Source: Candidatus Iainarchaeum sp. (GTDB lineage Archaea > Iainarchaeota > Iainarchaeia > Iainarchaeales > JAZDEL01). From it: a stretch of DNA of 32,000 bases. The position numbers were made by a program, and so were the translations under genes. Position 1 is the first letter of the stretch. Every line of letters begins with the position of its first letter. The stretch lies in NCBI GenBank assembly GCA_043808785.1, contig JAZDEL010000001.1, positions 182,455-214,454 on the forward strand. The letters run 5' to 3'. A model generated the notes under the pieces. The model was given only the letters and a program-made list of their open reading frames with translations. It searched no databases and had not been told where the DNA came from. This document shows, one piece after another, positions 1 to 31,839 of the stretch.

Positions 1-242
1 GTGTGCCCAAGCCTTCTGCACTCCTCGCAAACTGCGAAAGTCACGCGGTATTTTCCCGCCCTTTTTTTCCTCTTTCCCCTGAACTGCCCCGCAAGAAAAG
101 GGCTGTTATAAAACGGGTTTTCGATAACGCCGTCGACGAGATGTTTTATTCTTTCCTGCACGGCCTTTTCCAGCTTGCCAAAGTTTTTCTGGAAGACGGA
201 TGTGAACCGCGCCTCGTAATTAGCCCCCGAAGACCCTTGCAT
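1..242 (-). CDS. RelE/ParE-family toxin-like protein (partial; 3' end cut by the window edge)
   Basis: I hand-translated the minus strand from the ATG (complement of 240-242). It reads MQGSSGANYEARFTSVFQKNFGKLEKAVQERIKHLVDGVIENPFYNSPFLAGQFRGKRKKRAGKYRVTFAVCEECRRLGH and stays open to position 1. The pattern (KL..., ENP, L.G...G, R.G.YR...) resembles RelE/ParE toxins. It is missing from the ORF track because no stop codon lies inside the window. It overlaps the upstream ORF by 23 nt. Confidence 0.5.
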   Translation of the reverse strand, partial: MQGSSGANYEARFTSVFQKNFGKLEKAVQERIKHLVDGVIENPFYNSPFLAGQFRGKRKKRAGKYRVTFAVCEECRRLGH

Positions 243-885
243 ATGTCAGCGCCCTCTCCCCTTTGGCTTTGGCAGCAGCGGCTTTGAGGGATTCGCATTC
301 CTCGGCGTTCAGGTAAGTCATCAGGGTCTCAAGCCAGCCCTCGTCTATTTTAAAAATTTTCTTCGCGTTTTCCTCGGGCAGGTTAATCAGGAGCGGGGTT
401 TTTTCGGGCATTTCTCCGATAGGCAGGTCGCCGGCAGGGGTTTTTATGGTCATTGCATAGATTTCTTTTTTCAGTTCCGCCAAGTTGCGGCCGGATTCGG
501 CACGGACAACTTTCGCAATCCTTGCCATGATTTCCTTGTTATCCTCAAATACAGGCGCCATTTCCCTGAGTATTGCGTTCCCTTTGGCGGTAAGCCTGGC
601 GTTTGAAGTTATGAGCCCCTCCTCCACCAGGCCCTGGTAGTCCTCGAAGCCGAGTTCAAATGAGAACGGGCCGTAGTGGTAGCGCACAAAGGGATAGCTG
701 AACGCCTTTATCCTCTCTTTTTGCAGGCTGTGCTCTGCCTTGAATATGATTTTCACAAGCTTTGTGATGCCTTCCGCCCTTCCGTGCCTGTTCGCTTCGC
801 TAATCGAATAGAGCAAAAGCAGGTTGTCTATAGCCTTCTCCCTCGCGCTTCTGGAAGCCATTAAACCGCCCATATAGTGTTTCAA
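220..885 (-). CDS. Hypothetical protein, possible DUF4065 (SocA/GepA 'Panacea') antitoxin-like domain
   Basis: This is a 221-aa ORF. The segment ITKLVKIIFKAEH...FVRYHYGPFSFELGFEDYQGLVEEGLI resembles the KL.KLLY...YGP...L...G.I core of DUF4065. It sits directly upstream of, and overlaps, a RelE-like ORF, which is the usual antitoxin position. Confidence 0.4.
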   Translation of the reverse strand: MKHYMGGLMASRSAREKAIDNLLLLYSISEANRHGRAEGITKLVKIIFKAEHSLQKERIKAFSYPFVRYHYGPFSFELGFEDYQGLVEEGLITSNARLTAKGNAILREMAPVFEDNKEIMARIAKVVRAESGRNLAELKKEIYAMTIKTPAGDLPIGEMPEKTPLLINLPEENAKKIFKIDEGWLETLMTYLNAEECESLKAAAAKAKGERALTYARVFGG

Positions 886-888
886 CTT

Positions 889-1656
889 CTATAAAATATT
901 ATCCCTGCCGCCCCGTTTATAAATGGCTATGAGGGTGGGTTTCCAGTGCGGCGGCCCGCGCCGCGGTTTGTCGGGCAAGCAAAGCCGTTCGCAGCTGCGC
1001 GCGAGCGCACTACTTGCCTTTTTTCCCCCTTTTTCTACAAATATCCCCCTGACTGCATCATATTCATACCCTGGCATCGGAGTCGTTTTCTCGGTAAAAT
1101 ATCCCTTCTCAATCAAACTGCGGACAAAGTTGCGATATTTGGAATAGCGGGCAATTGAAGACTTCTCCTGCCCAATCTTAGTGTGCAAATGCCTCAAGGT
1201 GGCGCGCAACTTTGATGCTTCTTTCATCGGCATATCAATCAATTTTTTTTGTGCCTTGAGGTGGTAATACCCAATAACCTTCCCATAAGGGTTAATAGTC
1301 GCAATATGCCAGACGTTTATCTTTTTGCGCCTGCTCCAGGCATCTCCGACGAATGCCCTTAAATCACCGATGGAAGGTAAAGAGGAAGTGGCGATGCCGC
1401 GAAGTTCCGGCGCTAGAGCGTCCAAAACTGCCTCAGGGTGCGTATGAATATGCGATTTCTCGGTGCCTTTTTTAAACGACCTAATCCCAAACCATGGCAT
1501 TCGAAAAAGAATTCCACGGCGCATTTTGCCCGCAGTTCCCTTGTCTTTGAAGTAGGACATTTCCATAAAGTCTATGAATCGCGTTTCTTCTATCCTCTGT
1601 TTGGCGGTTTTATAGCCTGATGGCAGTCCTTTTGTCTTGCTTGCCTTTATCATCAC
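889..1656 (-). CDS. Hypothetical protein with a JAB/MPN (JAMM)-like HxH...S..D signature
   Basis: This is a 255-aa ORF. The track start is GTG at 1656; an ATG at 1653 is more likely. The motif HIHTHPE-x20-LPSIGD resembles the JAMM HxHx7Sx2D motif but with a longer spacer. A TATA-like element (complement of 1673-1683) lies about 20 nt upstream of the ATG. The stop is 3 nt before the start of the next gene. Confidence 0.45.
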   Translation of the reverse strand: MMIKASKTKGLPSGYKTAKQRIEETRFIDFMEMSYFKDKGTAGKMRRGILFRMPWFGIRSFKKGTEKSHIHTHPEAVLDALAPELRGIATSSLPSIGDLRAFVGDAWSRRKKINVWHIATINPYGKVIGYYHLKAQKKLIDMPMKEASKLRATLRHLHTKIGQEKSSIARYSKYRNFVRSLIEKGYFTEKTTPMPGYEYDAVRGIFVEKGGKKASSALARSCERLCLPDKPRRGPPHWKPTLIAIYKRGGRDNIL

Positions 1657-1698
1657 TATACATTGGGGATCGAAATATAAAAAGATTCCGCAGCGCTT

Positions 1699-1822
1699 CC
1701 CCGCGAACCCCCTCCCCTGAAAACCTTGTCATCCCCAGCCATTACCACCTCCCATTCGGGTTTTTTCTTACGCCTCGGCGTTTTCGGCTTTAAGCCTTTC
1801 CCCCTGATGGGGTCGGTGCGCC
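1699..1822. repeat. Intergenic repeat copy R1 (about 120 nt), paired with 4402-4518
   Basis: A 36-nt core, agccattaccacctcccattcgggttttttcttacg (1737-1772), is identical to 4433-4468. The flanks are similar out to about 1822 and about 4518. The left arm ccccgcgaaccc (1699-1710) is also shared. On the plus strand there is a hairpin plus T6 (cccattcggg-tttttt, 1751-1766). On the minus strand the same core reads GGGAGGTGGTAATGG, which is SD-like followed by an ATG. Confidence 0.85.
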
Positions 1823-1858
1823 TAAAGGCATTGTTCGGGCACAAACCGCCCCGATTTT

Positions 1859-2932
1859 TTACCTGCCGCCTTGGTTTCCGCGCACAGGCACGGAGCGGAC
1901 GTTCGGGAACTCGCGCAGGTCGCGAAGGACGCCTTCAACAATTTTTCGGTTGTTGGCACATGCATAAACAACATTCTGTGCCAGTTTTTTTTCGACAAAC
2001 TGCTTGTCAACTTCAAACTCTTCTGCAGTTTTTTTAGATATTTCTTTAAAAATCTCGCTTTTTTTCTTTTCGTCCAGCCAGCCGTGGGGCGTAATTCTAA
2101 GCCCTTCCTGCAAAATATTTGCGAGCCTCTTCCGCCCATATTCCCCCAATATTTTGGTAAAATCCTTGTATGGCATTTCAGAACCGTGGTCCAACCTAAG
2201 CTGTCGCGCAAAACGCTCTGTCGTGCTTTTTCCGCTGAGAAAATCAAAAGCGTGCCTTAAACGATTAAAATCCTCCCCTGCCCTATCGTATTTTTGCAGT
2301 TCATTAAACAATTCGTGGCTTACGCCATATTGCACGAATACCCTATCTTTGAACTTACCTCCCCCTTGCACACGCATCACAGGGCGCCAGCGTTTTAGTG
2401 ACTCGTGGCTTAATGGAATGTACTCTGAAATGCTTCCGACCTTTCCCGGATGTTGTGCATTGGTGGCGCCAGCAATTTCCTTCCCTTGTTGCCAATCTTT
2501 ATCACCGATTTTGACAAAAAGACCGTGGAACACCTGCACATTTGGCGGAGTTGCCTTACTGTTCTTGAGGGCTGTGTGCTGTAGGCTGAAATAGCAAAGC
2601 CTTTTCGGGTTTTTTATATCATAGAAAGTTATGTTTGTTAAGTTTCCCTTTGGCAGCTTTAACTCCGGGTGTCCGTATGCTTCCCTGAATTTCCCCCAGT
2701 ATTCCTTTGAGCGCGCGGGAATTCCGCCGCGCCTGATGCTCGGCAGCAGGAACTTTTTCACGAACTCGCTCGGCGTGGTGTGCTTCTTCATTGCCGCAAG
2801 AACCATTCTTGACATCTGCGCACCTGTTAGAATAACGGCCCCGAAGTTTAAATATTTGCCCCCTGAAGCCCCCGCGAACCCTCGCCCGCATGCCCCTGCG
2901 CCCCCATCACCTCCCCCGAAGAATTTTTTCAT
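1859..2932 (-). CDS. Hypothetical protein (no recognisable domain); the true start is probably the ATG at 2815
   Basis: This is a 357-aa track ORF. Its first 39 codons are Gly/Ala low-complexity sequence and contain a 27-nt segment identical to intergenic repeat R2. The internal ATG at 2815 is preceded by AGGTG (5-nt spacer) and by a TATA-like element (complement of 2846-2857). Confidence 0.6.
   Translation of the reverse strand: MKKFFGGGDGGAGACGRGFAGASGGKYLNFGAVILTGAQMSRMVLAAMKKHTTPSEFVKKFLLPSIRRGGIPARSKEYWGKFREAYGHPELKLPKGNLTNITFYDIKNPKRLCYFSLQHTALKNSKATPPNVQVFHGLFVKIGDKDWQQGKEIAGATNAQHPGKVGSISEYIPLSHESLKRWRPVMRVQGGGKFKDRVFVQYGVSHELFNELQKYDRAGEDFNRLRHAFDFLSGKSTTERFARQLRLDHGSEMPYKDFTKILGEYGRKRLANILQEGLRITPHGWLDEKKKSEIFKEISKKTAEEFEVDKQFVEKKLAQNVVYACANNRKIVEGVLRDLREFPNVRSVPVRGNQGGR
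2868..2894. repeat. 27-nt exact copy of the left arm of repeat R2
   Basis: The sequence gcccccgcgaaccctcgcccgcatgcc at 2868-2894 is identical to 4402-4428. Confidence 0.9.
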
Positions 2933-2959
2933 ATAGGGGGTTTTCCCGCCAAATGCAAT

Positions 2960-3373
2960 TTAATGCGCGGGAATGCCCATCTCCCGCAGCTGCTTTTTAA
3001 TAAGCTTCTTGGCAGCATCCGTAATCTCCTTCCTCGGCCCGAGTGCAGCAATATCGTATTGGCTGTTCATCTGGCTGGCTGCATTCTTTATTGCGTTTGC
3101 CCCGCCCACCTTGAGGCTTTTGAAGTGCGCATGCAATATCTGCGAGGCGGCGTTGCGGGGAATTCCCAACTGGAAGAGAACATAACCGTGATTCCTTATT
3201 TCTATGCCCGCCCTATTTGCCAGGCCGCAAAGGTTCCGCATGATGTTTTGTTTTTTCTTTTTTTTAAAGAACCTTTTTATTGCACCATTGCGCCTGACGG
3301 GCTTCGGCCTTTGTTTTCTCCTAAGAGGGCCCATGCCCCCGAAGGGGTCCATACCGCTGCGGAACTTCGGCAC
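2960..3373 (-). CDS. Hypothetical, very basic small protein
   Basis: This is a 137-aa ORF with a GTG start in the track and an alternative ATG at 3352. The N-terminal third is Lys/Arg-rich (RRKQRPKPVRRNGAIKRFFKKKKKQ). A TATA-like element (complement of 3405-3412) lies about 31 nt upstream of the GTG. Confidence 0.5.
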   Translation of the reverse strand: MPKFRSGMDPFGGMGPLRRKQRPKPVRRNGAIKRFFKKKKKQNIMRNLCGLANRAGIEIRNHGYVLFQLGIPRNAASQILHAHFKSLKVGGANAIKNAASQMNSQYDIAALGPRKEITDAAKKLIKKQLREMGIPAH

Positions 3374-3525
3374 AAAAACACCATACAGAATGTGCTCTCC
3401 ATGCTTAAATAATTTTGCCCCTGCCCTCGTCGCCCCACTGCGCTTCGATTACCCTCTCCTCGCCCATCGGAAATATACCCCCCGCGAAACCTCCCGCGCG
3501 CACTGCCGCCCCCCCCAATAATTCC

Positions 3526-4302
3526 CTACCTGCCGTTTCGCCCAACTATCAGATGGATGTTGTTGTTCGGCTCCTTGCTGTCTGTTCGCACAGCCCTGCT
3601 CTCAACGGCCTTTGCCCCGAACCTTTCCATGAGCGCGGCAATTTCAGCAGGTTTTGGCGGGCGCGTACGGTATTCCGGGCGATAAACAATAACTATCCCG
3701 CCGCCCGGTTTCAGCCTTGAAAACATGTGGCCGAGGGCCTTTTCTGCATCTTTCACATGGTGAAACGACTCGTTGGAAATTATCAGGTCAACCGATTTTT
3801 CTTTCAGGGGGGATTCCTCGAATGTGCCGGGCACAACGGAAACTTTTTTGCGCCCCCTGGGCCCCAGTATGTTGAGCGCAACCCTCGGCACCTGTTTCGC
3901 CATCTCGCGAAGGGGCTCTACGCCGATAATTTTGCCGATATTCGGAAACTCCTTGGCAAGGAAGCATTCGTGGTGCAGGTTTCCCGCGCCGTAACTTGCG
4001 ACCGTCGCCCCCTTTGGCAGGTTTAATCTGGAAACGCCCTCAACAAGAGCCCTATGGTCAATTATATTGTCTTCCGAACTGTAAATTTTGCCGTACTTCC
4101 TCGCCATGTAGCGGAATCTTTTTCCTTCGTCCTTTCCAGCCTCTGACAGCCGCCTCAGCTTTTCCCTGCTTTTCGGATTAAGCCCGTGGTAAAAGTTGGC
4201 ATATTCATCAAAGGTCATTCTCCAGCTCGGCTTGAACCAGAGCGCAAATTGCCCCAATCTGCCTGGTTTCTGCCCGATTTTTGCCCGCGGATTTCTGCCC
4301 AT
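3526..4302 (-). CDS. Class I SAM-dependent methyltransferase-like protein
   Basis: This is a 258-aa ORF. VASYGAGNLHHE...IIGVEP...VDLIISNESFHHV...LKPGGGIVIV follows the order of methyltransferase motifs I, II and post-II, although motif I is atypical. Confidence 0.6.
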   Translation of the reverse strand: MGRNPRAKIGQKPGRLGQFALWFKPSWRMTFDEYANFYHGLNPKSREKLRRLSEAGKDEGKRFRYMARKYGKIYSSEDNIIDHRALVEGVSRLNLPKGATVASYGAGNLHHECFLAKEFPNIGKIIGVEPLREMAKQVPRVALNILGPRGRKKVSVVPGTFEESPLKEKSVDLIISNESFHHVKDAEKALGHMFSRLKPGGGIVIVYRPEYRTRPPKPAEIAALMERFGAKAVESRAVRTDSKEPNNNIHLIVGRNGR

Positions 4303-4401
4303 AACGCCACATCAGGCTATGCTGCCAATGCAATAAACGGCAATTCAAAATATAAATATTTCATTTTCTGAAACACAGGCGCCTCGGCTGAATTTAATTG
4401 T

Positions 4402-4518
4402 GCCCCCGCGAACCCTCGCCCGCATGCCTAACAGCCATTACCACCTCCCATTCGGGTTTTTTCTTACGACTCGGCGCTTCTCGGCTTAAGCATTTCCCCC
4501 GCTTGGGGTCGGCTCCGC
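4402..4518. repeat. Intergenic repeat copy R2, paired with 1699-1822
   Basis: See R1 for the shared features. The core is at 4433-4468, the plus-strand hairpin plus T6 is at 4447-4462, and the left arm with the box ccccgcgaaccc is at 4404-4415. Confidence 0.85.
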
Positions 4519-4600
4519 TGCACGCCAATTACAGCCGTTCCCGGCAAATGCTCGCCAACAGAACGGGCGCGGAAACTTATTCAAGCCGTTTTTGAACCGC

Positions 4601-5242
4601 TCAAAGCCGTACACTCTTGTTTCCGTGAATTTTCTGGTGTGCTTTATTCCACAGCAGCCACAGCAGGAGATGGGGGGCTTCGGGCGGGGCATCGCTCTGC
4701 TGCAATTTCTCAATCCACCTTTCGGCTGCCGCCTGGGAGCTTACATATGCTTCACCTGCCGTATTCCCCTTCAGCAGCGATTTGACCGCCTGATTTGACA
4801 CGTCCAGGCACGGTTTCGCAAATTCATCCCGCAGAGGGGTTGCGCTCTTCTGGGGATTAATGGGAAAGCCGAACAAATCGCAGTATCCTATGAAAGCAGC
4901 TGCTCCCGACTGCACGCAGTCCCTCCCGAGTTTTGCCGCGGAACTGCACGAGCGGCAGTAAATAACTTTGTCCTTAAGCAGCCGTTCATTTTGCCCGCTC
5001 TTTATCAGGACTTCATTCCTGTGCCCCGCGACCCAATCCTCGCCGCCGTGGCCGTTGAACATTGCCAGTTTCGGGTTTTTTCTGCCGAGAAATTTGCCAA
5101 CCTCCGCGGCGCTTGCCCTTTCCCTCCTGAACTCAAAAACAGCAAGCCCCTTCTGCTTAGCCAGCTCTATAAGTTCGCCAGCCCATGCCGAAAGGTATGC
5201 GGTAGTGTCGTCGTGTTCGGGCAGGGTAATAAAGAATTCCAC
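4601..5242 (-). CDS. Hypothetical protein with a caspase-fold (clan CD)-like His-Gly...Cys signature
   Basis: This is a 213-aa ORF. FNGHGGEDW is followed 31-34 residues later by VIYCRSCSSA. That order and spacing resemble the catalytic dyad of gingipain, legumain and caspase-like peptidases. The call rests on the motif only. Confidence 0.35.
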   Translation of the reverse strand: MEFFITLPEHDDTTAYLSAWAGELIELAKQKGLAVFEFRRERASAAEVGKFLGRKNPKLAMFNGHGGEDWVAGHRNEVLIKSGQNERLLKDKVIYCRSCSSAAKLGRDCVQSGAAAFIGYCDLFGFPINPQKSATPLRDEFAKPCLDVSNQAVKSLLKGNTAGEAYVSSQAAAERWIEKLQQSDAPPEAPHLLLWLLWNKAHQKIHGNKSVRL

Positions 5243-5252
5243 AAAATCGCCC

Positions 5253-5459
5253 CTATTTTGAGAATGAGCGCAGATAGCTTAATTGTATTTCTATTATTTT
5301 TTCCCCAATCTTGCTGCCCTGCCTTACTTCCCCGATAAGTTCTTCTTTGCTGAAGACCCCCATGCTGCCCAGCGAAATTTTCATTGTCGGCGGCATGGTT
5401 TCCAGCCTGGCAATGACCAGTTTTTTTATTTCATCCTTACTTATTGCCATTGCCGCCAC
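5253..5459 (-). CDS. Small hypothetical protein (paralog of 5437-5640)
   Basis: This is a 68-aa ORF. KEELIGEVRQGSKIGEKIIEIQLSYL aligns with VAYREIRGGTALGAKILNKLEALKI of the upstream ORF. The two ORFs overlap by 23 nt. Confidence 0.5.
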   Translation of the reverse strand: MAAMAISKDEIKKLVIARLETMPPTMKISLGSMGVFSKEELIGEVRQGSKIGEKIIEIQLSYLRSFSK

Positions 5460-5640
5460 CTATGATTTTCAGCGCCTCAAGTTTATTCAGTATTTTTGCC
5501 CCCAGCGCAGTCCCGCCCCTTATCTCCCGGTATGCCACATTCCACGTGATGGGCTCGTCATCCACAACCAAAACTATCTCTTTTCTCACATTCAAAGGGA
5601 GGTCGGCATATATCTGCATAAATCTTTCTGCAGCGCCCAT
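5437..5640 (-). CDS. Small hypothetical protein (paralog of 5253-5459)
   Basis: This is a 67-aa ORF. See the paralog entry. A TATA-like GTTTAAATAC lies on the minus strand upstream, at about 5685-5695. Confidence 0.5.
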   Translation of the reverse strand: MGAAERFMQIYADLPLNVRKEIVLVVDDEPITWNVAYREIRGGTALGAKILNKLEALKIIGGGNGNK

Positions 5641-5724
5641 TACACCACGCCCAAACGCATCACGGCAACTTATATTGATATGAAGCAGTATTTAAACCCT
5701 TTTTGCACCCGCCAGCAGGCAGGC

Positions 5725-6363
5725 TCACTTCCCCGCGTTCGCGCCCGCTGGCCATTTCTTCTTTTCCTTAAGCAGCGCGGGCGCCCCCGCGGCAATCACA
5801 TACCCTATTTCGAAGCCCGCCATTGCGACTATGTAAATATACTTCCCGAGCGCAAAGCCCGCGATTATGCACGCGAGGGGGAGCAGCAGCCTGCTCCCGA
5901 GCGCGAACTTCACAAGCGCGTTCGTTTCCTCGCCCCTCTTTTCAGCCCTATCCCCCCTGTCGCTCAGCGCCTCGTCGAGCACCGCACAAAGCAGGAATGC
6001 GGCAAAAAGCGGGAACTCGATTTCGGGAATCCCGAGGAAAGCAAGCGCGGCAATTATTGCAGCAACACCGAACTGGTGCGCCTTGTCGACCTTCCCGTAA
6101 ACGAGCACCGCAGCAACAACCGCAAGCCCCCATGTCATTGTCTCGGTTTTCAGCGAAAGCACGACCCCCAGAAGCAGCCCGTATGCAAGCGCAAGCGCGT
6201 ATGCAACCCTCGCATCCGCCTTAATCCTGCCGTCGGAAAGGTCGTCGGCAAACTTCACAAGCGCGCCCGCGATGAAGGTGAGAAGCACTATATTCGCAAA
6301 AACGAAAAAGCTGTCCGCGAGCGCGGCAAGGGAAGCGATAAAATATGCGATTGTGTATTCCAT
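5725..6363 (-). CDS. Integral membrane protein with Asp-rich motifs (possibly prenyltransferase-like)
   Basis: This is a 212-aa ORF with about 6 hydrophobic segments. It carries FADDLSDGRIKAD and LDEALSDRGD, which resemble DDxxD/DxxxD motifs. The functional assignment is weak. Confidence 0.55.
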   Translation of the reverse strand: MEYTIAYFIASLAALADSFFVFANIVLLTFIAGALVKFADDLSDGRIKADARVAYALALAYGLLLGVVLSLKTETMTWGLAVVAAVLVYGKVDKAHQFGVAAIIAALAFLGIPEIEFPLFAAFLLCAVLDEALSDRGDRAEKRGEETNALVKFALGSRLLLPLACIIAGFALGKYIYIVAMAGFEIGYVIAAGAPALLKEKKKWPAGANAGK

Positions 6364-10568: not shown

Positions 10569-10642
10569 TGGGCGTAGGAGGATTTGAACCCCCGACACTT
10601 GGTGTATAAGACCAATGCTCTGCCAGGCTGAGCTATACGCCC
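10569..10642 (-). tRNA. tRNA-Ile, anticodon UAU
   Basis: The reverse complement reads GGGCGTA-TA-GCTC-AGCCTGGCA-GAGC-A-TTGGT-CTTATAC-ACCAA-GTGTC-GGGGG-TTCAAAT-CCTCC-TACGCCC-A. It has a perfect 7-bp acceptor stem, a 4-bp D stem, a 5-bp anticodon stem and a 5-bp T stem (one G-U pair). The anticodon loop is CT-TAT-AC, the discriminator is A73, and no CCA is encoded. The 3' end lies 18 nt from the ileS ATG. Confidence 0.9.
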
Positions 10643-13255: not shown

Positions 13256-13282
13256 TTACATATCCCCCATGTCTCCGCCCAT
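13256..13282. repeat. 27-nt exact duplicate of the thermosome 3' end (downstream copy)
   Basis: The sequence ttacatatcccccatgtctccgcccat is identical to 13415-13441. On the minus strand it encodes MGGDMGDM-stop. Confidence 0.95.
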
Positions 13283-13390: not shown

Positions 13391-13417
13391 GCAAAACTGC
13401 CCTGCTGGCGGCAGTTA
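13391..13417 (-). terminator. Hairpin plus T4 immediately after the thermosome stop
   Basis: The minus strand reads TAA-CTGCC-GCCAGCAG-GGCAG-TTTT. Confidence 0.4.
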
Positions 13418-15067
13418 CATATCCCCCATGTCTCCGCCCATTCCGCCCATGCCTCCGGGCGGCATCCTGGGCCCCGAACTCTTGCTCCCGCCCGCTATGA
13501 TATCGTCGATGCGCAGCAGCATCTCCGCGACTTCTGAACCCGAGGTTATCGCCTGCGTCTTTATGCTCAGCGGCTCTATAACCTTCGCCTCCTTCATGTT
13601 GGAGAACTTCGCATTGTAGACATCGACGCCTATATACTTGCCTTCCTTGCCGGTGTGCTTGTTCCTGAGGCCGACAAGCGTGTCTATCGGGTCCATTCCC
13701 GCGGTTTCCGCGAGCGTGCGGGGAATTACCTCGAGGGTTTCGGCGAACGCCTCTATCGCAAGCTGCTCCCTTCCGCCGAACTTCTTCGCGTATTCCCTGA
13801 GTTTCATCGCGACCTCTATCTCCGAGCTTCCGCCGCCACTGACAATCTTGCCGTCCCTTACCGCCGAGGAGGTTGCGCCTATTGCGTCGTGCACCGCCCT
13901 CTCCGCCTCATCAACAACGTGCTCCGAGCCTCCGCGCACAAGCAGCGAAACAGACTTGGGGTTTGTGCACCCTTCCACAAACACCATTTCGTCGCCCGCA
14001 ATCTTCTTCTCCCTTACAACCGCGGCTTTTCCGAGGTCGGATTCCGAAAGGTCCGCAATCCTGCTCACTACCTTTCCGCCCGTGGCTCTTGCAAGCGCGT
14101 CCATGTCGCTCTTCTTCACGCGCCTTACCGCAACTATCTTTTCCTTCGCAAGGAAGTGCTGTGCCAAATCATCTATCCCTTTCTGTGTTATCAGCACATT
14201 TGCCCCCGAGGCCTTTACCTTTTCAACCATGTCCCTGAGCATCTTCTCTTCCTGGTCTATGAATGCCTGCATCTGGTCGGGAGATGTTATCTCAATCTTC
14301 GCGTCGGTTTCCGTGTCCTTTATCTCGAGCGCGGCGTCAAGCAGTGCAATCTTCGCGCCCTTCACGTTTCTGGGCATTCCCGCGTGCACTATTTCCTTGT
14401 CTATCACGATTCCCTTGACAAGTTCGCTGTCCGCTATGCTTGCTCCAACCTTCTTCTCGACCTTTATATTATCCATATTAATTACTGTCTTGCCGTCTTC
14501 CTTGTCCGCAACCGTCTGTATCGCGTCGACAACCAAATCGGCAAGCTCCCCCGCGCTTTCCGCGCTCTTGCCCGTCATCGAGGTCATTGCAATGTCGCGC
14601 AGCGCCTTCCTGTCGTCGAATGTGATGTCGTCGGAAATTTCCCTGTAGAACTCCTTTGCCTTTTTTGCCGCCTCCCTGTAGCCCTTGATTATTATGCTCG
14701 GGTGTATGTCGTCGTCAAGCAGCCTTTCCGCCTTGTGCAGGAGCTCGCCCGCGATTATGACCGCGGTCGTTGTCCCGTCCCCTACCTCGTCGTCCTGCGT
14801 TTTCGCGACCTCGACCATCATTTTTCCCGCGGGATGGTCGATGCTCATCTCGCCGAGGATTGTCGCGCCGTCGTTGCTTATTGTCACATCCCCGAGCTCG
14901 TCAACAATCATCTTGTCCATTCCCTTCGGTCCAAGCGTGCTCTTCACAGCCTGCGCCACAGCGCGCGCTATGAGTATGTTAATCCTCTGGGCATCCCTGC
15001 CCCTTACCCTTTTGGAACCTTCCGTGAGAAATACCACCGGCTGGTTCATCTGCTGTTCTCCGCCCAT
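13415..15067 (-). CDS. ths: Thermosome subunit (group II chaperonin)
   Basis: The protein reads [41 protein letters not shown] and VGDGTTT, and ends in a [13 protein letters not shown] tail. I chose the ATG at 15067 (GGAGGTG 7 nt upstream) over the track start at 15133. Confidence 0.93.
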
Positions 15068-16465: not shown

Positions 16466-17365
16466 CTAATCCCCTTCAAAATATTTCTCCATCACATACC
16501 TTACAAACGGCCTTTCCTTGCGCTCTATCTGGTATTTGTCGAGGGCGTTGTAATAATTCTCTATATCCTCTATCTTTATGTCAATCATGGGGTAGCCTTT
16601 CTTCCACAAAATCCAGTTCATAAGCAGCCTTGAAACCCTGCTGTTCCCGTCCGTAAAGGGCTGGATGGAGTTTATTTTCAGGTGCGTAAGCGCGGCAAGT
16701 TCCAGCGGGTGCAGCCTCCTGCTGTTTGCCCCGTACCATTTAAAGAATTCCGCAATCTCCTTATCAAGCACGTTCCATTTGGGCGGGACATAGGGCGTGC
16801 CCGCAATCTTCACGTCCCTTTTGAGCCCGCTCCGAAATTTTCCCGTGATTGCATCATCCACACCCGCGAAAAGTATTTTATGCAGTTTTTTCAGGAACCC
16901 CATGCCCAGCCTGCCCCTGAATTTCGTTATAGCCACAACTCCCTTTTCGTGGTTCTCCACTTCCTTCACTGTGCGGAGGCTCCTGAAACCTTTCGGCACT
17001 ATGCCGTCCTTGAGTATGAGCGAGGTCTGCCTCAGGGTTACATTAACACCCGAGAGCTTGCTGCTGTCATAGGTAAACCTTATCATGAACTGCCCGAGGC
17101 GCCTGCTTTTCTCCAAAGGGCTGAGCGATTTCAGCTCCTTTGCATTGCGTTCCTTTATTTCCGCTATGCGTGCCGCTTCCTCCGCCGAGAAGTACCTGTA
17201 CCTGCCTTCCTCGGTCTCCCTGATGAATTCTTCCTTCAGCCGTTCCAGCCTCGCTTTTGGCGGCAGGGTTTTGCCTATGTATCGCGATTCTTTCACTACC
17301 TTTTTCCCTTTCCTTACGGAACGGACGAGGACATAGTAGCCGTTAATCTTCCTTATGAAAACCAT
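16466..17365 (-). CDS. Fic-domain protein with a degenerate active site (Q replaces the catalytic H)
   Basis: This is a 299-aa ORF. The Fic motif reads QPFTDGNSRVSR instead of HPFx[DE]GNGRxxR; I checked the CAG codon on the DNA. The inhibitory-helix motif reads SSKLSG instead of SxxxEG. A TATA element (complement of 17389-17396) lies 23 nt upstream of the ATG and overlaps the GT stop codon. Confidence 0.85.
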   Translation of the reverse strand: MVFIRKINGYYVLVRSVRKGKKVVKESRYIGKTLPPKARLERLKEEFIRETEEGRYRYFSAEEAARIAEIKERNAKELKSLSPLEKSRRLGQFMIRFTYDSSKLSGVNVTLRQTSLILKDGIVPKGFRSLRTVKEVENHEKGVVAITKFRGRLGMGFLKKLHKILFAGVDDAITGKFRSGLKRDVKIAGTPYVPPKWNVLDKEIAEFFKWYGANSRRLHPLELAALTHLKINSIQPFTDGNSRVSRLLMNWILWKKGYPMIDIKIEDIENYYNALDKYQIERKERPFVRYVMEKYFEGD

Positions 17366-18738: not shown

Positions 18739-19344
18739 TCATCGCCCTCCTCCCCTTCCGTGGTAATTGAACCTCATCGAACTTATATCTTCCCTGTTTA
18801 TTTCAAACATCCTCGCCCCGCGCTTTGTCTTGCATTTGTACCTGCATGAGGGCGTGAAATACCCGTGGAAATTTTTGGAGAAAAACGCCTCGTCCCACAC
18901 TTCATCAAAAACCGCGCCCGCTTTCGGCTCTATAATTATCATCTTCCCGCCTTTCTTAAGCACCCTCGCGGTTTCGCGCATCGCCCTTGCGTGCTTTGCC
19001 CTTGGTATGTGGTGCAGCACATGCGCAAAAACAGCGACATCAAAACTTTCATCCGCGAAAGGCATCTTCTCCGCGCCCGCGCCGAACACGGGGTAAGGGA
19101 GCATTGCCGCGCGCCCTTTCACAAGCGCCTTGTCCGCCTCTATCCCGCGCACGGAATAGCCTTTCCTCGCAAGGCGCTCGCCTGTCAATCCCAGGCCGCA
19201 CCCCACATCGAGAACCTTGCACCCGCGCGGCAGCATGCGCATGATTTCGGAAAGGTTCCTCGAGCGTGCGTGCAGCATTATGCACGCCTCCTTTGCGTGC
19301 GCATTTTTGAGCATTCCCAAAACAAACTTGTCGACAGCATTCAT
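18739..19344 (-). CDS. Class I SAM-dependent methyltransferase
   Basis: It carries VLDVGCGLGLTG (motif I), FDVAVFAHVLHHI and LKKGGKMIIIEP. Its ATG overlaps the Fic2 stop codon (ATGA at 19341-19344). Confidence 0.85.
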   Translation of the reverse strand: MNAVDKFVLGMLKNAHAKEACIMLHARSRNLSEIMRMLPRGCKVLDVGCGLGLTGERLARKGYSVRGIEADKALVKGRAAMLPYPVFGAGAEKMPFADESFDVAVFAHVLHHIPRAKHARAMRETARVLKKGGKMIIIEPKAGAVFDEVWDEAFFSKNFHGYFTPSCRYKCKTKRGARMFEINREDISSMRFNYHGRGGGR

Positions 19345-20354
19345 CGAACCGCCCCATCTCCGCCTGCGGCATTAATTTTTTTCCCTGATTTCAGGTGCTG
19401 CCGCACTATCTCTTCCGCAAGGAAACCTGTGAACGGCTTGTGGTTATTAATGTTCCCCGCAGCCTGTGTTTTCATGTAAGCCGCCCTTCTTTTTAAAGGT
19501 ATGTTCGTGAACGGGAACCCTTTCTGCTGCAGTATGTAATTCATAAGCAGCCTCGCCATCCTTCCGTTGCCGTCAGCAAACGGGTGAATGCCCGTGAACT
19601 TTGTGTGGAATTTCGCAGCCAGTTCCGCAGGGTGAACCAGTTTTTCGTTCTCCCCGAGCCATTGCACAAGGCCTTTCATCATGCCGGGAACTTCCTGCGG
19701 AAGCGGAAATTCGTGCTCCGAGCCCGCAATGTAGACTTTCACGGGCCTGTAAATTCCCTGATATTTTTCATAGCCCGAAATCCTGTCAAGGAGAATGTAG
19801 TGCAGCTGAAGAATCATTTTTTCCGAAAGCCTTTCTTCGAGCCGCATATATTTGTCGTACCTGTCGAGGCAAGCCTTGAGGTTCAGCGCCTCCTGCTCTT
19901 CGCGGTCTATTCCCGTTACAATTATGTTTTTTTTCTCGTATTTTTTTATTTCTTTTTCCTGCCCTATTATTCTCGAGGTTTCGCTGTAATTAAGGGAACT
20001 CCCTTCTATTGCATTGGAGTCGGTTATGAAGGTGATTCGCTCCCTTCTCACAAAATCCTCCCTCTGCAGTTCCGTTAGCCTGCGCAGGAACTTTTTCTTT
20101 TTTTCGGAGGCCGCCTGCAGCTGCAGGGCTTTCTTGTTTGGGATGAACTCCGTCAGCGGCGGAACAAGCACTGCGTGCTTTTTTCGCCCGCACTTCTTCT
20201 TCAGTTCATCAAACGCTTCCAAAAGGGCTTCATTCCCCGGCTTTTCCGGCCCGAGGTAAATGCTTTCCTTTACCCATTTTTTCCCGCGCTTGAACGACTC
20301 TTCGAGGTAGTAGTAGGTTTTGCCCTTCACAACCCTTTTGCTTACAAGGCACAT
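19341..20354 (-). CDS. Fic family protein (canonical motif; AMPylase-type)
   Basis: This is a 337-aa ORF. It carries HPFADGNGRMAR and the inhibitory-helix motif SNAIEG. Its N-terminus (KGKTYYYLEESFKRGKKWVKESIYLG) is shared with Fic1. Confidence 0.9.
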   Translation of the reverse strand: MCLVSKRVVKGKTYYYLEESFKRGKKWVKESIYLGPEKPGNEALLEAFDELKKKCGRKKHAVLVPPLTEFIPNKKALQLQAASEKKKKFLRRLTELQREDFVRRERITFITDSNAIEGSSLNYSETSRIIGQEKEIKKYEKKNIIVTGIDREEQEALNLKACLDRYDKYMRLEERLSEKMILQLHYILLDRISGYEKYQGIYRPVKVYIAGSEHEFPLPQEVPGMMKGLVQWLGENEKLVHPAELAAKFHTKFTGIHPFADGNGRMARLLMNYILQQKGFPFTNIPLKRRAAYMKTQAAGNINNHKPFTGFLAEEIVRQHLKSGKKINAAGGDGAVR

Positions 20355-20359
20355 GCATA

Positions 20360-20497
20360 GTTATCACGGGAAAACATATTTAAACATATCTCCGTGATAA
20401 CTGCAAGTTATCACTCGCCCGCTTCCAGTACCATGTTTCCGTGATAACCGCGGGTTATTACTCAAACCGTTTTCGGCAGGGCGTTTCCGTGATAACC
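20360..20497. promoter_or_regulatory. Fic2 promoter with an array of GTGATAAC operator-like sites
   Basis: A TATA element (complement of 20377-20384) lies 22 nt upstream of the ATG at 20354. Half-sites are at 20360-20369 (reverse) and 20488-20496 (forward). One palindrome is gtgataac-tgcaa-gttatcac (20394-20414). A second is gtgataac-cgcgg-gttattac (20441-20461). The 15-mer gtttccgtgataacc occurs twice, at 20435-20449 and 20483-20497. Confidence 0.6.
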
Positions 20498-26298: not shown

Positions 26299-26913
26299 AT
26301 GGCGCGTACGCCTGATTTGCTTTTCGGCTCTGCAACAAGGGTCAGGCTGCTTGAACTTCTCCTTTTCAATGCGGGTGCGCAGCTGCACCTGCGCGAAATA
26401 GCGAGGCGCGCCAAAGCGGTGCCGACATTCGCGAAAAAGGAGCTCGGCAGGCTCGAGGCATGCGGACTTGTGAAGCGCGCGGAGCAGGGGAACATGCTTC
26501 TTTACTCCGCGAACGAAAAAAGCCCGCTCTACAATGACATGCGCTCCCTGCTCCTCAAAACCTCGCTCCTGCCGGAACAGCTGAAGAAAATTCTGCAGAA
26601 ATTCGACGTGAAGTTTGCGCTTATTTACGGCAGTTTTGCAGCGGGAACCGAAAGCAGGGGAAGCGATGTAGATATGCTTATTGTGGGAAATGTCCGTGAG
26701 CGGGAGTTCATTGCGCCCCTGCATGAACTTGAGGGAAGGCTCGGCAGGGAGGTAAATTATATAATCTGGACTGAACATGAGTTCAATAAGCGCGCAGGGG
26801 AGGGGAACGGGCTGCTTGTTAACATAGCAAGGAATCCGGTTATCTTCCTGGCAGGGGATGAGGATGAGTTTGGAAGAATTGCTGGAAAAAGGCCTGGTAA
26901 AAAAGGCGGATAA
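26299..26913 (+). CDS. Winged-helix DNA-binding domain fused to a minimal nucleotidyltransferase (MNT, antitoxin-type)
   Basis: The N-terminus RVRLLELLL...LHLREIARRA...ELGRLEACGLV is ArsR/wHTH-like. The NTase motif is YGSFAAGTESRGSDVDMLIV (GS-x9-DxD). Confidence 0.8.
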   Translation: MARTPDLLFGSATRVRLLELLLFNAGAQLHLREIARRAKAVPTFAKKELGRLEACGLVKRAEQGNMLLYSANEKSPLYNDMRSLLLKTSLLPEQLKKILQKFDVKFALIYGSFAAGTESRGSDVDMLIVGNVREREFIAPLHELEGRLGREVNYIIWTEHEFNKRAGEGNGLLVNIARNPVIFLAGDEDEFGRIAGKRPGKKGG

Positions 26914-27289
26914 GGATGCCGCAGCTGCAAGGAAGTTCCTCGCAATCGCGGGGCGCGACCTGAAGGCTGCGGAAGATAATCTGGAATATGAGAACTACGA
27001 CTGGAGCCTGGCAATGGCTTACAATGCAATGCTCCAGTGCGGGCGCGCCCTCATGCATTCGCTCGGCCATGTCCCGAGCGGAAGCCAGAGCCATGTTGCA
27101 ATAGTGCGGTTCGTCCAGAACCATTTCAGGGGCGAAAAAGACAAAGGAATTTTCCTGCTTTTTGACAAGATAAGGAAAAAGAGGCACCAGGCGGTCTATG
27201 ACGAGGCGGGAATTGTGACATTAAGCATGGCGAGCCAGGCGATAAAGACAGCGGAAGAGTTCATGGAAAAAATAAAGAAGGAGATTTAA
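26858..27289 (+). CDS. HEPN domain protein (toxin-type partner of MNT)
   Basis: This is a 143-aa all-helical protein. The R-x4-6-H motif lies within IRKKRHQAVYD. It overlaps the 3' end of the MNT gene by about 50 nt. The start is ATG 26858 or 26864. Confidence 0.75.
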   Translation: MRMSLEELLEKGLVKKADKDAAAARKFLAIAGRDLKAAEDNLEYENYDWSLAMAYNAMLQCGRALMHSLGHVPSGSQSHVAIVRFVQNHFRGEKDKGIFLLFDKIRKKRHQAVYDEAGIVTLSMASQAIKTAEEFMEKIKKEI

Positions 27290-29731: not shown

Positions 29732-29916
29732 GTGTTCACCTCGCTTAAAAAACGTAGTTAATGGCTAAAAAAGCCGTATATTATTATTCCACCGTCGGTT
29801 TTTAATGCCTTGCTGTGAAGAAATTGCGCAGGGGTTATGTATAATTTACCCTGCAACAGGTGCCACTCCATTGCCAATAGCCTTAAATATGCCCCGAGTG
29901 TTAATATTTGCTAATT

Positions 29917-31839
29917 ATGGCGAATTCAAATATTCCCCATGCGGCAATTGCCGCGGCAGTTTTGCTGCTGCTTATCGGGCCCGTTGCCGCAGGCTCACTG
30001 GGGGATGTTTTCGGCGCATTCGCAAATTTGGGAAAGGTAAAGCCGCAGTTCGATTTCGACAACAGCGGAGGGCCGATAACGGTGAACGACGTGCTCACAG
30101 CGCTTGCAAATGTCGTGGGATTCCATGTCAGTTTCCCAGGGGCAGGCCGGTGCAGCGCGGATTCCGACTGCGGCAGCGGAGCAACAGGCGCACCTTACTG
30201 CGACGGCAACAGCGTTGTGCAGGATGCCAATGCTCCCGCCTGCCTGAACCCGGGAACCGCGCAAAGCGCGTGCAGCGCGAATGTTACTACCTCCGTTATC
30301 GAGGAATGTGCCTATGGCTGCTATGACGGGAACTGCCAGCTGGAGCCGCAATACTGCTGTGCGGGCACCGGCGGCTGCACCATAAGCGTTTGCAGCCTTA
30401 ACGGCCAGACAGGGAATATTTCCTGCATTATGCAGGCAGGCCAGACAATGCAGCTGACGAACCTGAACGACTGCAGGCTTACCCTCCTTGTTGAAAACGA
30501 CGGCGCAATGGGCCGCTTGTACATAAACAATTCCTCGGGCAACACAGTTGCCGCCGGCGACATAAACACATCCAGTTATGGGCTGTACTTATACGGCGCC
30601 TCAAGCAACAACACAATTCACACAGGCAGCATAACAACGACTACAAGTAGCGGGCTGCGCCTGGAAAATGCCTCAGGCAACACCGTCGCCGCAGGCAGCA
30701 TAACGACGACCTCGGGTTACGGGCTCTATTTGATCGGTGCTTCACGCAACACCGTCGCCGCAGGCAGCATAACGACGACCTCGGGTTACGGGCTCTCTTT
30801 GGCCAGCGCCTCAAGCAACAACACAATTCACGCAGGCGACATAGCCCCCGCTATCATCGGAGTGTATTTAAACACAGGCTCAAACGACAATGCCATCACC
30901 AGCGGCAATATAACCGCCACAAACCACGGGGTGTATTTAACAGGCGCCTCAAGCGGCAACAACATCGCCACCGGCGACGTAACCGCAAACCTATACAACG
31001 GGCTGTATTTAAACACAGGCTCGAACGGCAACACAATTCACGCAGGTGACATATCCTCCGCAAGCACCACGGTCACGTTAACCACCGCCTCAGGCAACAA
31101 CATCAGCACAGGCGGCATAACCACAAACACGGGCTACGGGCTGTATGTGGGCAATACTTCAATCGATAACATCATCACAACAGGCGATATAGCCTCAAAC
31201 ACAAACAACGGGCTGTATTTAACAAGCTACTCGAGCAATAATGCCGTCTCTACGGGCGGCATAACTGTTTCCGCAAGCAACGGGGCGGTCATAAGCAATG
31301 CCGCAAACAACACAGCCGCCACAGGCAGTATAAACTCCGCAAAATACGGGCTGTACTTATACAATGCATCGGGCAACGCCGTCACCACAGGCGGCATAAA
31401 CTCCGTGCAGTATGGGGTGCTTTTGAACGCCGACGCGGACGTCAACAATTCCAGCAATAACACGGTAACGACAGGGGACATTCATGTAACCCCTTCATCC
31501 AGCAGTTACCACGCGGTTTTGCTGCAAAGAGCCGCCAACAACTACGTGCAGGTGGGCAGCATTACAGTGGATTCGCTCACAAGCGGCATATACCTTTATA
31601 CCCCGAATTCAGGGAACACGGTAAAGGCTGGGAGCGTAACCCTCATTGCTTCGGATGCCGGCAGGGGGGTTTATGTGGGAAGCAACACCTACACCCCGAA
31701 TGCCCTTGTGTGCGCAGGCACAATAACCGGCGGTCTCGCGAAATGCTATAAAGGAACTGTCTCGGTGATGGTCTGCGAGAACGGCACGCCTGTTGCCGGC
31801 TGCGACAATTCGGCGGAAAGAACCTGCGGCGAGTGCTAA
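29917..31839 (+). CDS. Secreted parallel beta-helix repeat protein (adhesin/surface protein-like)
   Basis: I chose the ATG at 29917, which is 26 nt downstream of TTAAATAT (29883-29890). It has a signal peptide (AAIAAAVLLLLIGPVAAGS) and a dockerin/EF-hand-like segment (DFDNSGGPITVNDVLTALANVVG). It then has a Cys-rich module (CSADSDCG...YCDGN...C.NPGT...C) and about 17 repeats of about 23 aa (GNTVAAGSITTTSGYGLYL...). The tail is Cys-rich. Confidence 0.8.
   Translation: MANSNIPHAAIAAAVLLLLIGPVAAGSLGDVFGAFANLGKVKPQFDFDNSGGPITVNDVLTALANVVGFHVSFPGAGRCSADSDCGSGATGAPYCDGNSVVQDANAPACLNPGTAQSACSANVTTSVIEECAYGCYDGNCQLEPQYCCAGTGGCTISVCSLNGQTGNISCIMQAGQTMQLTNLNDCRLTLLVENDGAMGRLYINNSSGNTVAAGDINTSSYGLYLYGASSNNTIHTGSITTTTSSGLRLENASGNTVAAGSITTTSGYGLYLIGASRNTVAAGSITTTSGYGLSLASASSNNTIHAGDIAPAIIGVYLNTGSNDNAITSGNITATNHGVYLTGASSGNNIATGDVTANLYNGLYLNTGSNGNTIHAGDISSASTTVTLTTASGNNISTGGITTNTGYGLYVGNTSIDNIITTGDIASNTNNGLYLTSYSSNNAVSTGGITVSASNGAVISNAANNTAATGSINSAKYGLYLYNASGNAVTTGGINSVQYGVLLNADADVNNSSNNTVTTGDIHVTPSSSSYHAVLLQRAANNYVQVGSITVDSLTSGIYLYTPNSGNTVKAGSVTLIASDAGRGVYVGSNTYTPNALVCAGTITGGLAKCYKGTVSVMVCENGTPVAGCDNSAERTCGEC
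30677..30796. repeat. Perfect 51-nt repeat with a 69-nt period inside the beta-helix gene
   Basis: The sequence gcaacaccgtcgccgcaggcagcataacgacgacctcgggttacgggctct occurs at 30677-30727 and again at 30746-30796. The period equals one 23-aa coil. Confidence 0.9.

Follow-up and report, generated by a model that had tools for sequence, protein, structure and literature searches.

A non-coding intergenic element of about 130 nucleotides (nt) recurs at gene junctions in a 32,000-nt stretch of DNA from Candidatus Iainarchaeum sp. (contig JAZDEL010000001.1, positions 182,455 to 214,454 of the forward strand; hereafter the window). We give an about even chance to the explanation that the element is a lineage-restricted junction repeat of an accessory-gene island, and that its copies recombine with one another. 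Under this explanation, the copies would occupy junctions between unrelated, co-oriented accessory genes (ORFans and a methyltransferase gene in the window, toxin-antitoxin genes in a relative), within a hypervariable island directly downstream of a conserved block encoding IleRS, deoxyhypusine synthase (DHS) and a membrane protein. Each copy would act as a patch of shared homology for recombination. Recombination and gene conversion between copies could homogenise segments of the element, giving rise to a core of 37 nt that is identical in the two full-length copies of the window, while recombination could also generate mosaic copies and swap the genes between or beside them. We infer homologous recombination as the mechanism.

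An earlier note on this DNA had described an intergenic repeat of about 120 nt in two copies, which share an identical core of 36 nt. The repeat is present far beyond chance, as judged by a repeat finder, shuffles and nhmmer. Both copies (R1 and R2, Table 1) were confirmed, and a third copy (C3) exists in the window; the identical core is also real, with a length of 37 nt. The motifs quoted for the core were all found as stated: ACCACCTCC and CCCATTCGGG-TTTTTT on the plus strand and GGGAGGTGGTAATGG on the minus strand. R1 and R2 form a gapless block of 81 nt with 86% identity (1736-1816 and 4432-4512; family D7 of the repeat finder), and a 24-nt core sequence occurs exactly twice against 0.00 occurrences expected from shuffles. 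A profile built from R1 and R2 recovers both copies by nhmmer (E = 6e-44 and 6e-39) and gives E = 5.6e-4 for C3; an enlarged model gives E = 2.4e-18 for C3. R1 has the stop of the 318-aa (amino acid) gene on one side and the start of the 254-aa gene with its TATA-like box on the other; C3 is located between the 93-aa and 318-aa genes, and R2 between the methyltransferase gene and the 213-aa gene on its upstream side. An AT-rich, TATA-like patch follows the GGGTTCGCGGGG block of each copy at a distance of 0-15 nt. A doubtful remnant (C4) reaches an nhmmer E-value of only 1.8, so it may be a chance match and is too weak to count as a copy. In total, five copies from three genomes are known: R1, R2 and C3 in the window, one copy on a Logan contig (L005, positions 5333-5457), which was found via a DHS synteny anchor in a protein database, and one on a JGI contig (L007, positions 606-718), which was found via the 90% cluster of the methyltransferase.

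Whether the identical core is under selection is best judged from the orthologue in L007. L007 is orthologous to window positions 2971-4502 with 93.3% identity and includes the positional orthologue of R2. This orthologue is 88.7% identical to R2 (11 substitutions among 97 aligned nt) and carries two indel events in addition, whereas the 101 nt that separate the element from the start of the methyltransferase gene are 97.0% identical, the methyltransferase coding sequence is 94.7% identical and its third codon positions are 92.3% identical. Conservation of the element is significantly lower than that of the neighbouring region upstream of the methyltransferase gene (P = 0.027, Fisher's test; P = 0.009 when indels are counted) and does not exceed that of third codon positions (P = 0.29), so that the element is not under visible constraint in the orthologue. 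The core of the L007 copy reads CCTTAATGAGGCGGTAATGG where the window has CCCGAATGGGAGGTGGTAATGG; a 2-nt deletion together with substitutions has destroyed the GGAGGTG/CACCTCC motif, which is thus dispensable at this locus. The 3' part of the L007 element differs by 6 changes in 28 nt. By comparison, the core of R2 is identical to that of R1 at 37 of 37 positions, and the 3' part of R2 is identical to C3 (2868-2894) at 27 of 27 positions. Since the paralogues are closer to R2 than its own orthologue is, the identity points to exchange between copies, i.e., concerted evolution, rather than to purifying selection on the motif.

The copies are mosaics of shared modules. Two core types were observed, type 1 (AAGAAAAAACCCGAATGGGAGGTGGTAATGGCTG) in R1, R2 and, in degraded form, L007, and type 2 (ATGAAAAAATTCTTYKGGGGGAGGTGATGGGGGCG) in C3 and L005. 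Both the 5' module (TTTAGGCGCA..CCGACC..GGGGAAAGGCTTAAG) and the 3' module (GCATGCGGG..GGGTTCGCGGGG) occur with either core type. R2 matches R1 in its 5' module and core, and its 3' 27 nt are those of C3; the L005 copy joins an R1-type 5' module to a C3-type core. The breakpoints of these mosaics lie at different internal positions, which fits homologous rather than site-specific exchange.

Synteny with the relatives breaks at the edges of the element or inside it. The DHS protein of L005 is 88% identical to that of the window, and nucleotide identity is about 84% through the IleRS, DHS and membrane-protein genes, immediately after which homology ends. Past this breakpoint, L005 carries an RHH/PIN_2 pair, a full-length element (E = 2.8e-6 with the R1/R2 model, 5e-27 with the enlarged model) and then a gene for a 195-aa protein with a weak RelA_SpoT-like match in Pfam. 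The cassettes on both sides of the copies differ between L005 and the window. Further on, L005 matches the window again over a short junction that lies upstream of the 213-aa gene (L005 6185-6239, about window 886-940); between the element and this junction, the two genomes carry unrelated genes. A single gene therefore appears to have been swapped between conserved flanks. Homology between the window and L007 stops at window position 4502, inside the 5' module of the element. On the left side of L007, 600 nt of AT-rich DNA have no relation to the window and encode a signal-peptide protein with a bacterial-type AAGGAGG site; the join at the 5' module may be a real rearrangement or an assembly chimera formed at the repeat. 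The relative L001, with a DHS of 73% identity, has neither the island nor the element.

Two side observations concern the L005 locus. The RHH_12/PIN_2 pair and the 195-aa RelA_SpoT-like gene (L005 4693-6239) occupy the place of the window cassettes. A junction of 45 nt, GGAAACCCACCCTC...CATTTATAAACG, located upstream of the next gene, is common to L005 and the window (860-960).

Several points weigh against a recombining junction repeat. The comparison is limited to five copies in three genomes, no recombination intermediate was observed, and in L007 the AT-rich left flank may stem from chimeric assembly instead of a real rearrangement. Across two diverged core types, all five copies retain GAAAAAA (T6 on the opposite strand), four of five retain GGGAGGTG and four of five TTCGCGGG; these conserved blocks hint at a sequence-specific function beyond passive homology. 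Furthermore, all 11 mismatches between R1 and R2 lie outside the core (P about 6e-4 before correction for the post hoc nature of the test), and selection could explain the mismatch-free core as well as gene conversion. Given the conserved A6/T6, GGGAGGTG and TTCGCGGG blocks and the mismatches that avoid the core, the element may have a secondary sequence-specific role, and these blocks may carry a secondary expression signal. A bolder proposal is that, through the same three blocks, the junction elements are the sites recognised by a cassette-shuffling system of DPANN archaea that is independent of attC, or serve as multi-copy anti-Shine-Dalgarno small RNA genes at cassette boundaries; we see this as a long shot.

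The genes around the copies are consistent with an accessory island. The window comes from an Iainarchaeota-like DPANN archaeon: its gene content is archaeal (thermosome, IleRS, DHS with a Pfam E-value of 4e-104, and a tRNA at 10569-10642), and its nearest named relatives are metagenome-assembled genomes (MAGs) of Candidatus Iainarchaeum/Diapherotrites. The deposited gene calls near the repeat were recovered by exact look-up, and the genes surrounding the repeat all lie on the minus strand. Each copy in the window fills an intergenic gap, with the stop of the preceding gene on one side and a TATA-like box on the other. Such boxes lie 25-50 nt before the annotated starts of many window genes, and most window genes are apparently leaderless or short-leadered as read from their upstream regions. 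The box of the 254-aa gene lies outside the R1/R2 repeat, and its surrounding context is common to the L005 copy. The genes flanking the copies are mutually unrelated (BLASTP E = 0.54 for the downstream pair in the window and 22 for the upstream pair), so only the intergenic piece is repeated and not a larger segment. Most of the flanking genes received no family assignment from Pfam and defence scans, and their defence and phage annotation yielded nothing decisive. The 254-aa protein downstream of R1 has no homologue among 5.8 billion clusters and is an ORFan; the other island proteins apart from the methyltransferase fall in singleton clusters. The variable region that contains all the copies begins just past the conserved IleRS, DHS and membrane-protein block.

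Table 1. Window positions of the repeat copies, their parts and the neighbouring genes (nhmmer E-values are from the enlarged model).
Feature	Position	Strand	Basis or remark
R1, full-length copy	1696-1830	minus	nhmmer E 8e-30
R2, full-length copy	4400-4527	minus	nhmmer E 3e-33
C3, 5'-truncated copy, type-2 core ATGAAAAAATTCTTCGGGGGAGGTGATGGGGGCG	2865-2949	minus	nhmmer E 2.4e-18
C4, doubtful remnant (GGTTTCGCGGGG and G-runs), directly past the methyltransferase stop	3480-3504	minus	63% identity over 48 nt (D6)
Core of R1, 37 nt (identical to core of R2)	1736-1772		A6/T6 run 1761-1766; GGAGGTG/CACCTCC 1746-1752; ATG 1740-1742
Core of R2, 37 nt (identical to core of R1)	4432-4468		T6 4457-4462; GGAGGTG 4442-4448; ATG 4436-4438
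GGGTTCGCGGGG block, end of element	1699-1710	minus	exact recurrences 2870-2881 and 4404-4415; one mismatch 3480-3491
Gene, 213 aa (upstream of R2)	4601-5242	minus	deposited gene call
SAM methyltransferase gene, 258 aa	3526-4302	minus	deposited gene call and Pfam; start 4302
Gene, 93 aa	2960-3241	minus	deposited gene call
ORFan gene, 318 aa	1859-2815	minus	deposited gene call; start 2815
ORFan gene, 254 aa	889-1653	minus	deposited gene call; start 1653
Gene, 213 aa	220-861	minus	deposited gene call
TATA-like box TTTTTATATTT of the 254-aa gene	1673-1683	minus	read from sequence; about 25 nt before ATG

The element is non-coding. That its conservation lies at the nucleotide and not the protein level, as the earlier note had proposed, is borne out by several observations. 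Between R1 and R2, the six reading frames contain 0-5 synonymous against 9-13 non-synonymous codon changes, which is no synonymous excess. The open reading frames (ORFs) that follow the Shine-Dalgarno (SD) motif and ATG run to 28, 14, 19 and about 49 codons across the copies, and are out of frame with one another because of indels; the ATG-AAAAAA frame is open in C3 and is closed by a stop in the copy of L005. In the deposited gene calls, the element is intergenic, and the start annotated for the 318-aa gene lies downstream of C3. A protein search with translations of the ORFs that cross the element, aimed at copies wrongly annotated as genes, returned no match. A small protein-coding gene was accordingly rejected as a candidate, with no conserved frame, no synonymous excess and no homologue.

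We sought whether the element instead carries a conserved RNA structure, as the earlier note had suggested for either strand. On both strands, minimum free energies equal those of dinucleotide-shuffled sequences (z from -0.31 to +1.29). In the alignment of the three full-length copies, the covariation terms of RNAalifold are penalties on both strands (+2.67 and +2.89), and in the five-copy alignment neither the proposed helices nor the helix that would sequester the SD contain a single pair with a double-sided change, although the power to detect covariation is low with five sequences. The CCCC-N4-GGGG hairpins, which had been described as compensatory, have identical stems in R1 and R2 and differ in their loops alone, and so are not compensatory; in L005 only CC-AGAA-GG is left of the hairpin, and L007 lacks it. 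The stem of three pairs that precedes T6 shows only C-to-U variation on the minus strand, which corresponds to C·A mismatches on the plus strand in three of the five copies. The stem and oligo-T run had been taken for a terminator, but its pairing is broken in those copies, and because the host is an archaeon, the bacterial logic of a stem plus oligo-T terminator is not directly applicable. No conserved RNA structure is supported, and the available signal points away from a conserved fold. Nor is a structured non-coding RNA, whether of an Rfam family or new, supported: there is no match at the gathering score, no compensatory change and no unusual stability. A G-quadruplex was rejected too, the canonical motif being found in C3 only and not in R1 or R2, with similar relaxed motifs inside coding regions. 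Resemblances to a tRNA fragment and to the 16S 3' end were dismissed on reading of the sequence.

The same observations bear on a multi-copy antisense small RNA (sRNA) from the plus strand, which would start at the AT-rich patch by CCCCGCGAACCC and end at T6 as an archaeal oligo-T terminator. The product, a C-rich RNA about 55-70 nt long, would use its CACCUCC(C) to mask GGAGG(UG) ribosome-binding sites in trans. T6 is kept in five of the five copies and CACCTCC in four, yet the L007 orthologue has CCGCCTC in place of CCACCTCCC, the element changes at least as fast as third codon positions, and the stem before T6 is mismatched as described. An AT-rich, TATA-like patch precedes CCCCGCGAACCC in every copy, but its spacing from the conserved block varies from 0 to 15 nt, and the conserved 5' module (GGGGAAAGGCTTAAG, TTTAGGCGCA) lies beyond T6 and is left unexplained. 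Some window genes do use GGAGG-type sites; the GGAGGTG that had been ascribed to genes in the window is exact only at the thermosome gene, however, a few others having partial GGAGG or GAGGTG, and most genes seem to be leaderless or short-leadered. Masking of ribosome-binding sites by C-rich sRNAs has precedents in the archaeal sRNA41 of Methanosarcina mazei (PMC5867862) and in the bacterial CcsR/CCUCCUCCC-motif RNAs (Rfam RF02791). The element resembles them in that its plus strand has a C-rich anti-SD motif followed by an oligo-T run, and differs in that no conserved hairpin presents the motif, the motif is gone in one orthologue, and the element has no Rfam match. The antisense sRNA is therefore unlikely, and the anti-SD motif is better read as part of a segment exchanged between junction repeats.

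On the minus strand, the element could act as a leader or intercistronic riboregulator, in which a 5' CCGACC(CC) pairs with the GGGAGGUGG SD of a short upstream ORF and controls the downstream gene. An SD and ATG, preceded by an A-rich tract, are found in four of five copies, and the ORF of R1, with 28 codons, ends where the 254-aa gene has its start codon, but the small ORFs vary in length, lose their frame and show no synonymous bias. The long-range helix CCGACCCCA/UGGGAGGUGG is predicted in R1 and R2 and is paired in 95.8% of the alignment cells that have letters on both sides; it has no compensatory change, however, L005 and L007 have lost or changed its pairing partner, and the fold z-scores are about 0.2. 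In addition, TATA-like boxes in keeping with the annotated starts are found past the element on its downstream side, where the sequence is far better conserved (97%) than in the element itself (88.7%). A conserved leader, which the earlier note had offered as the alternative to an sRNA, is thus quite improbable.

The sequence family is new, although its kind is familiar. Neither the DHS-anchored scans of GTDB and JGI, which reached only distant relatives, nor a profile search of the more distant relatives L001, L003, L004 and L006 found the element, and no analogous junction repeat was found in L001 and L006. The exact type-1 core of 24 nt has no match in GTDB representative genomes or in JGI metagenomes, four patterns gave no exact match in IMG/VR, and blastn against plasmid and phage collections gave no match. 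In the whole window, only the tRNA passes the Rfam gathering threshold. A relaxed Rfam search of positions 1-5800 returned chance hits only, including a long non-coding RNA model without structure at 27.8 bits against a threshold of 50 bits; a weak match to CcsR1 at 2422-2500 is off the element and far below threshold.

A MITE (miniature inverted-repeat transposable element) or a similar small non-autonomous transposable element is a further candidate. The small size, the intergenic location, and the several copies with fairly sharp boundaries in two or three related genomes would suit a MITE, but no terminal inverted repeats or target-site duplications were seen in the flanks, and all known copies are in one island and in one orientation. 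Together with the lack of any plasmid, phage or viral match and of the exact type-1 core in GTDB or JGI, this makes a MITE highly improbable.

If the copies are indeed recombining junction repeats, they would represent a small case of a genome-reduced DPANN archaeon that keeps a hotspot of swappable accessory genes, with short non-coding repeats that provide the homology by which genes are replaced and that undergo concerted evolution. The main value of the case would be that the identity of the "anti-SD" core reflects exchange between copies and not conservation of an RNA motif. It is also a caution for scans that use sequence only, as an identical core between paralogues mimicked purifying selection on an RNA motif. 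No long-standing question is opened by the finding.

Other features of the window were noted in passing. Within the island, the intergenic region 3242-3525 (284 nt, between the methyltransferase and 93-aa genes) is 93.6% conserved in L007 and holds GACCCCTTCGGGGG, which resembles the 5' hairpin motif of the element; the profile does not call a copy there. A partial ORF at 3-215 (minus strand), downstream of a 213-aa gene, is RelE/ParE-like by eye and has no Pfam match, and the 213/221-aa gene upstream of it has only weak PADLOC matches (PDC-M19A, E = 2e-6). Another short local duplication (D19) is found at the thermosome gene, whose end (last codons and stop, ATGGGCGGAGACATGGGGGATATGTAA on the minus strand) is present as an exact copy of 27 nt at 13256-13282 and 13415-13441, the duplicate lying 159 nt downstream of the gene. 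Two Fic/DOC genes are located at 16466-17365 and 19341-20354. Just upstream of the latter are two tandem palindromic sites (GTGATAAC-N5-GTTATCAC-like, 20385-20416 and 20432-20463; D16), which resemble the operators of an autoregulator. A nucleotidyltransferase (Polbeta/NTP_transf_2) and HEPN pair at 26299-27289 has the form of a typical toxin-antitoxin-like module. Tandem coding repeats of about 69-72 nt (GNT..AG.I....GYGLYL-type; D1-D4) occupy 30520-31440 in the ORF 29908-31839, whose 643-aa product has an N-terminal hydrophobic segment and looks like a repetitive surface protein.

Among known systems, putative mobile promoters (PMPs) are homologous non-coding regions located upstream of non-homologous genes (Nijveen, Matus-Garcia & van Passel 2012, PMC3575422). 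They are defined by at least 80% identity over at least 50 nt, non-paralogous coding sequences and a match within -150 to -50 of both translation starts, and whether selection or recent duplication causes their identity was raised by the same authors as an open question (PMC3575422). The element resembles PMPs in its 81-nt gapless block of 86% identity, which lies upstream of unrelated genes and is thus within the identity limit, in the non-paralogy of those genes by BLASTP, and in its presence in a related genome. It departs from them in position, as the block spans about -83 to -163 for R1 and about -130 to -210 for R2, counted from the annotated starts at 1653 and 4302; for R2, only about 21 nt of it fall inside the frame. 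Moreover, the TATA-like boxes are outside the repeated part, and the host is archaeal.

The element might also be a site-specific recombination site of a cassette system, like the attC sites of integrons or the Vibrio cholerae repeats (VCRs), with the recombinase encoded outside the window. Ghaly et al. 2022 (PMC9668308) reported integrons and clusters of attC sites lacking integrases (CALINs) in MAGs of archaea, DPANN lineages among them. The likeness consists in repeats of about 125-135 nt between single, co-oriented, mostly ORFan cassettes, in toxin-antitoxin genes nearby, in cassette content that varies between relatives, and in synteny breakpoints and gene replacement that coincide with the elements. 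The R''/R' core sites of attC are missing, however: no RYYYAAC...GTTRRRY pair occurs in window 1-6000 (regular expression, both strands, 50-150 nt apart), the whole window has one such pair per strand with poorly complementary ends, and an isolated GTTAGGC is present in R2 only. Nor is there the imperfect palindrome of attC, as R1 and R2 show no overall dyad symmetry, no inverted repeat of more than 8-11 nt around them, and folds equal to shuffles. The available DNA contains no integrase, and the scanned proteins of the window and the loci included neither a tyrosine recombinase nor a transposase, the island extending beyond the window. Several junctions are without the element, and the mosaics have differing internal breakpoints. 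We therefore attach little probability to an attC-like site.

Minimal mobile elements of Neisseria, where cassette replacement is also repeat-mediated, are differing genes that lie between conserved flanks and are exchanged by homologous recombination. The replacement of a gene by an unrelated one between the element and the GGAAACCCACCCTC...CATTTATAAACG junction is of this kind. Unlike in Neisseria, one of the flanks here is a repeated intergenic element and the host is a DPANN archaeon, for which natural transformation is not known. Judged by analogy, the function of the recombining junction repeat appears to resemble replacement of cassettes flanked by repeats, and by the features examined the element is not an attC site.

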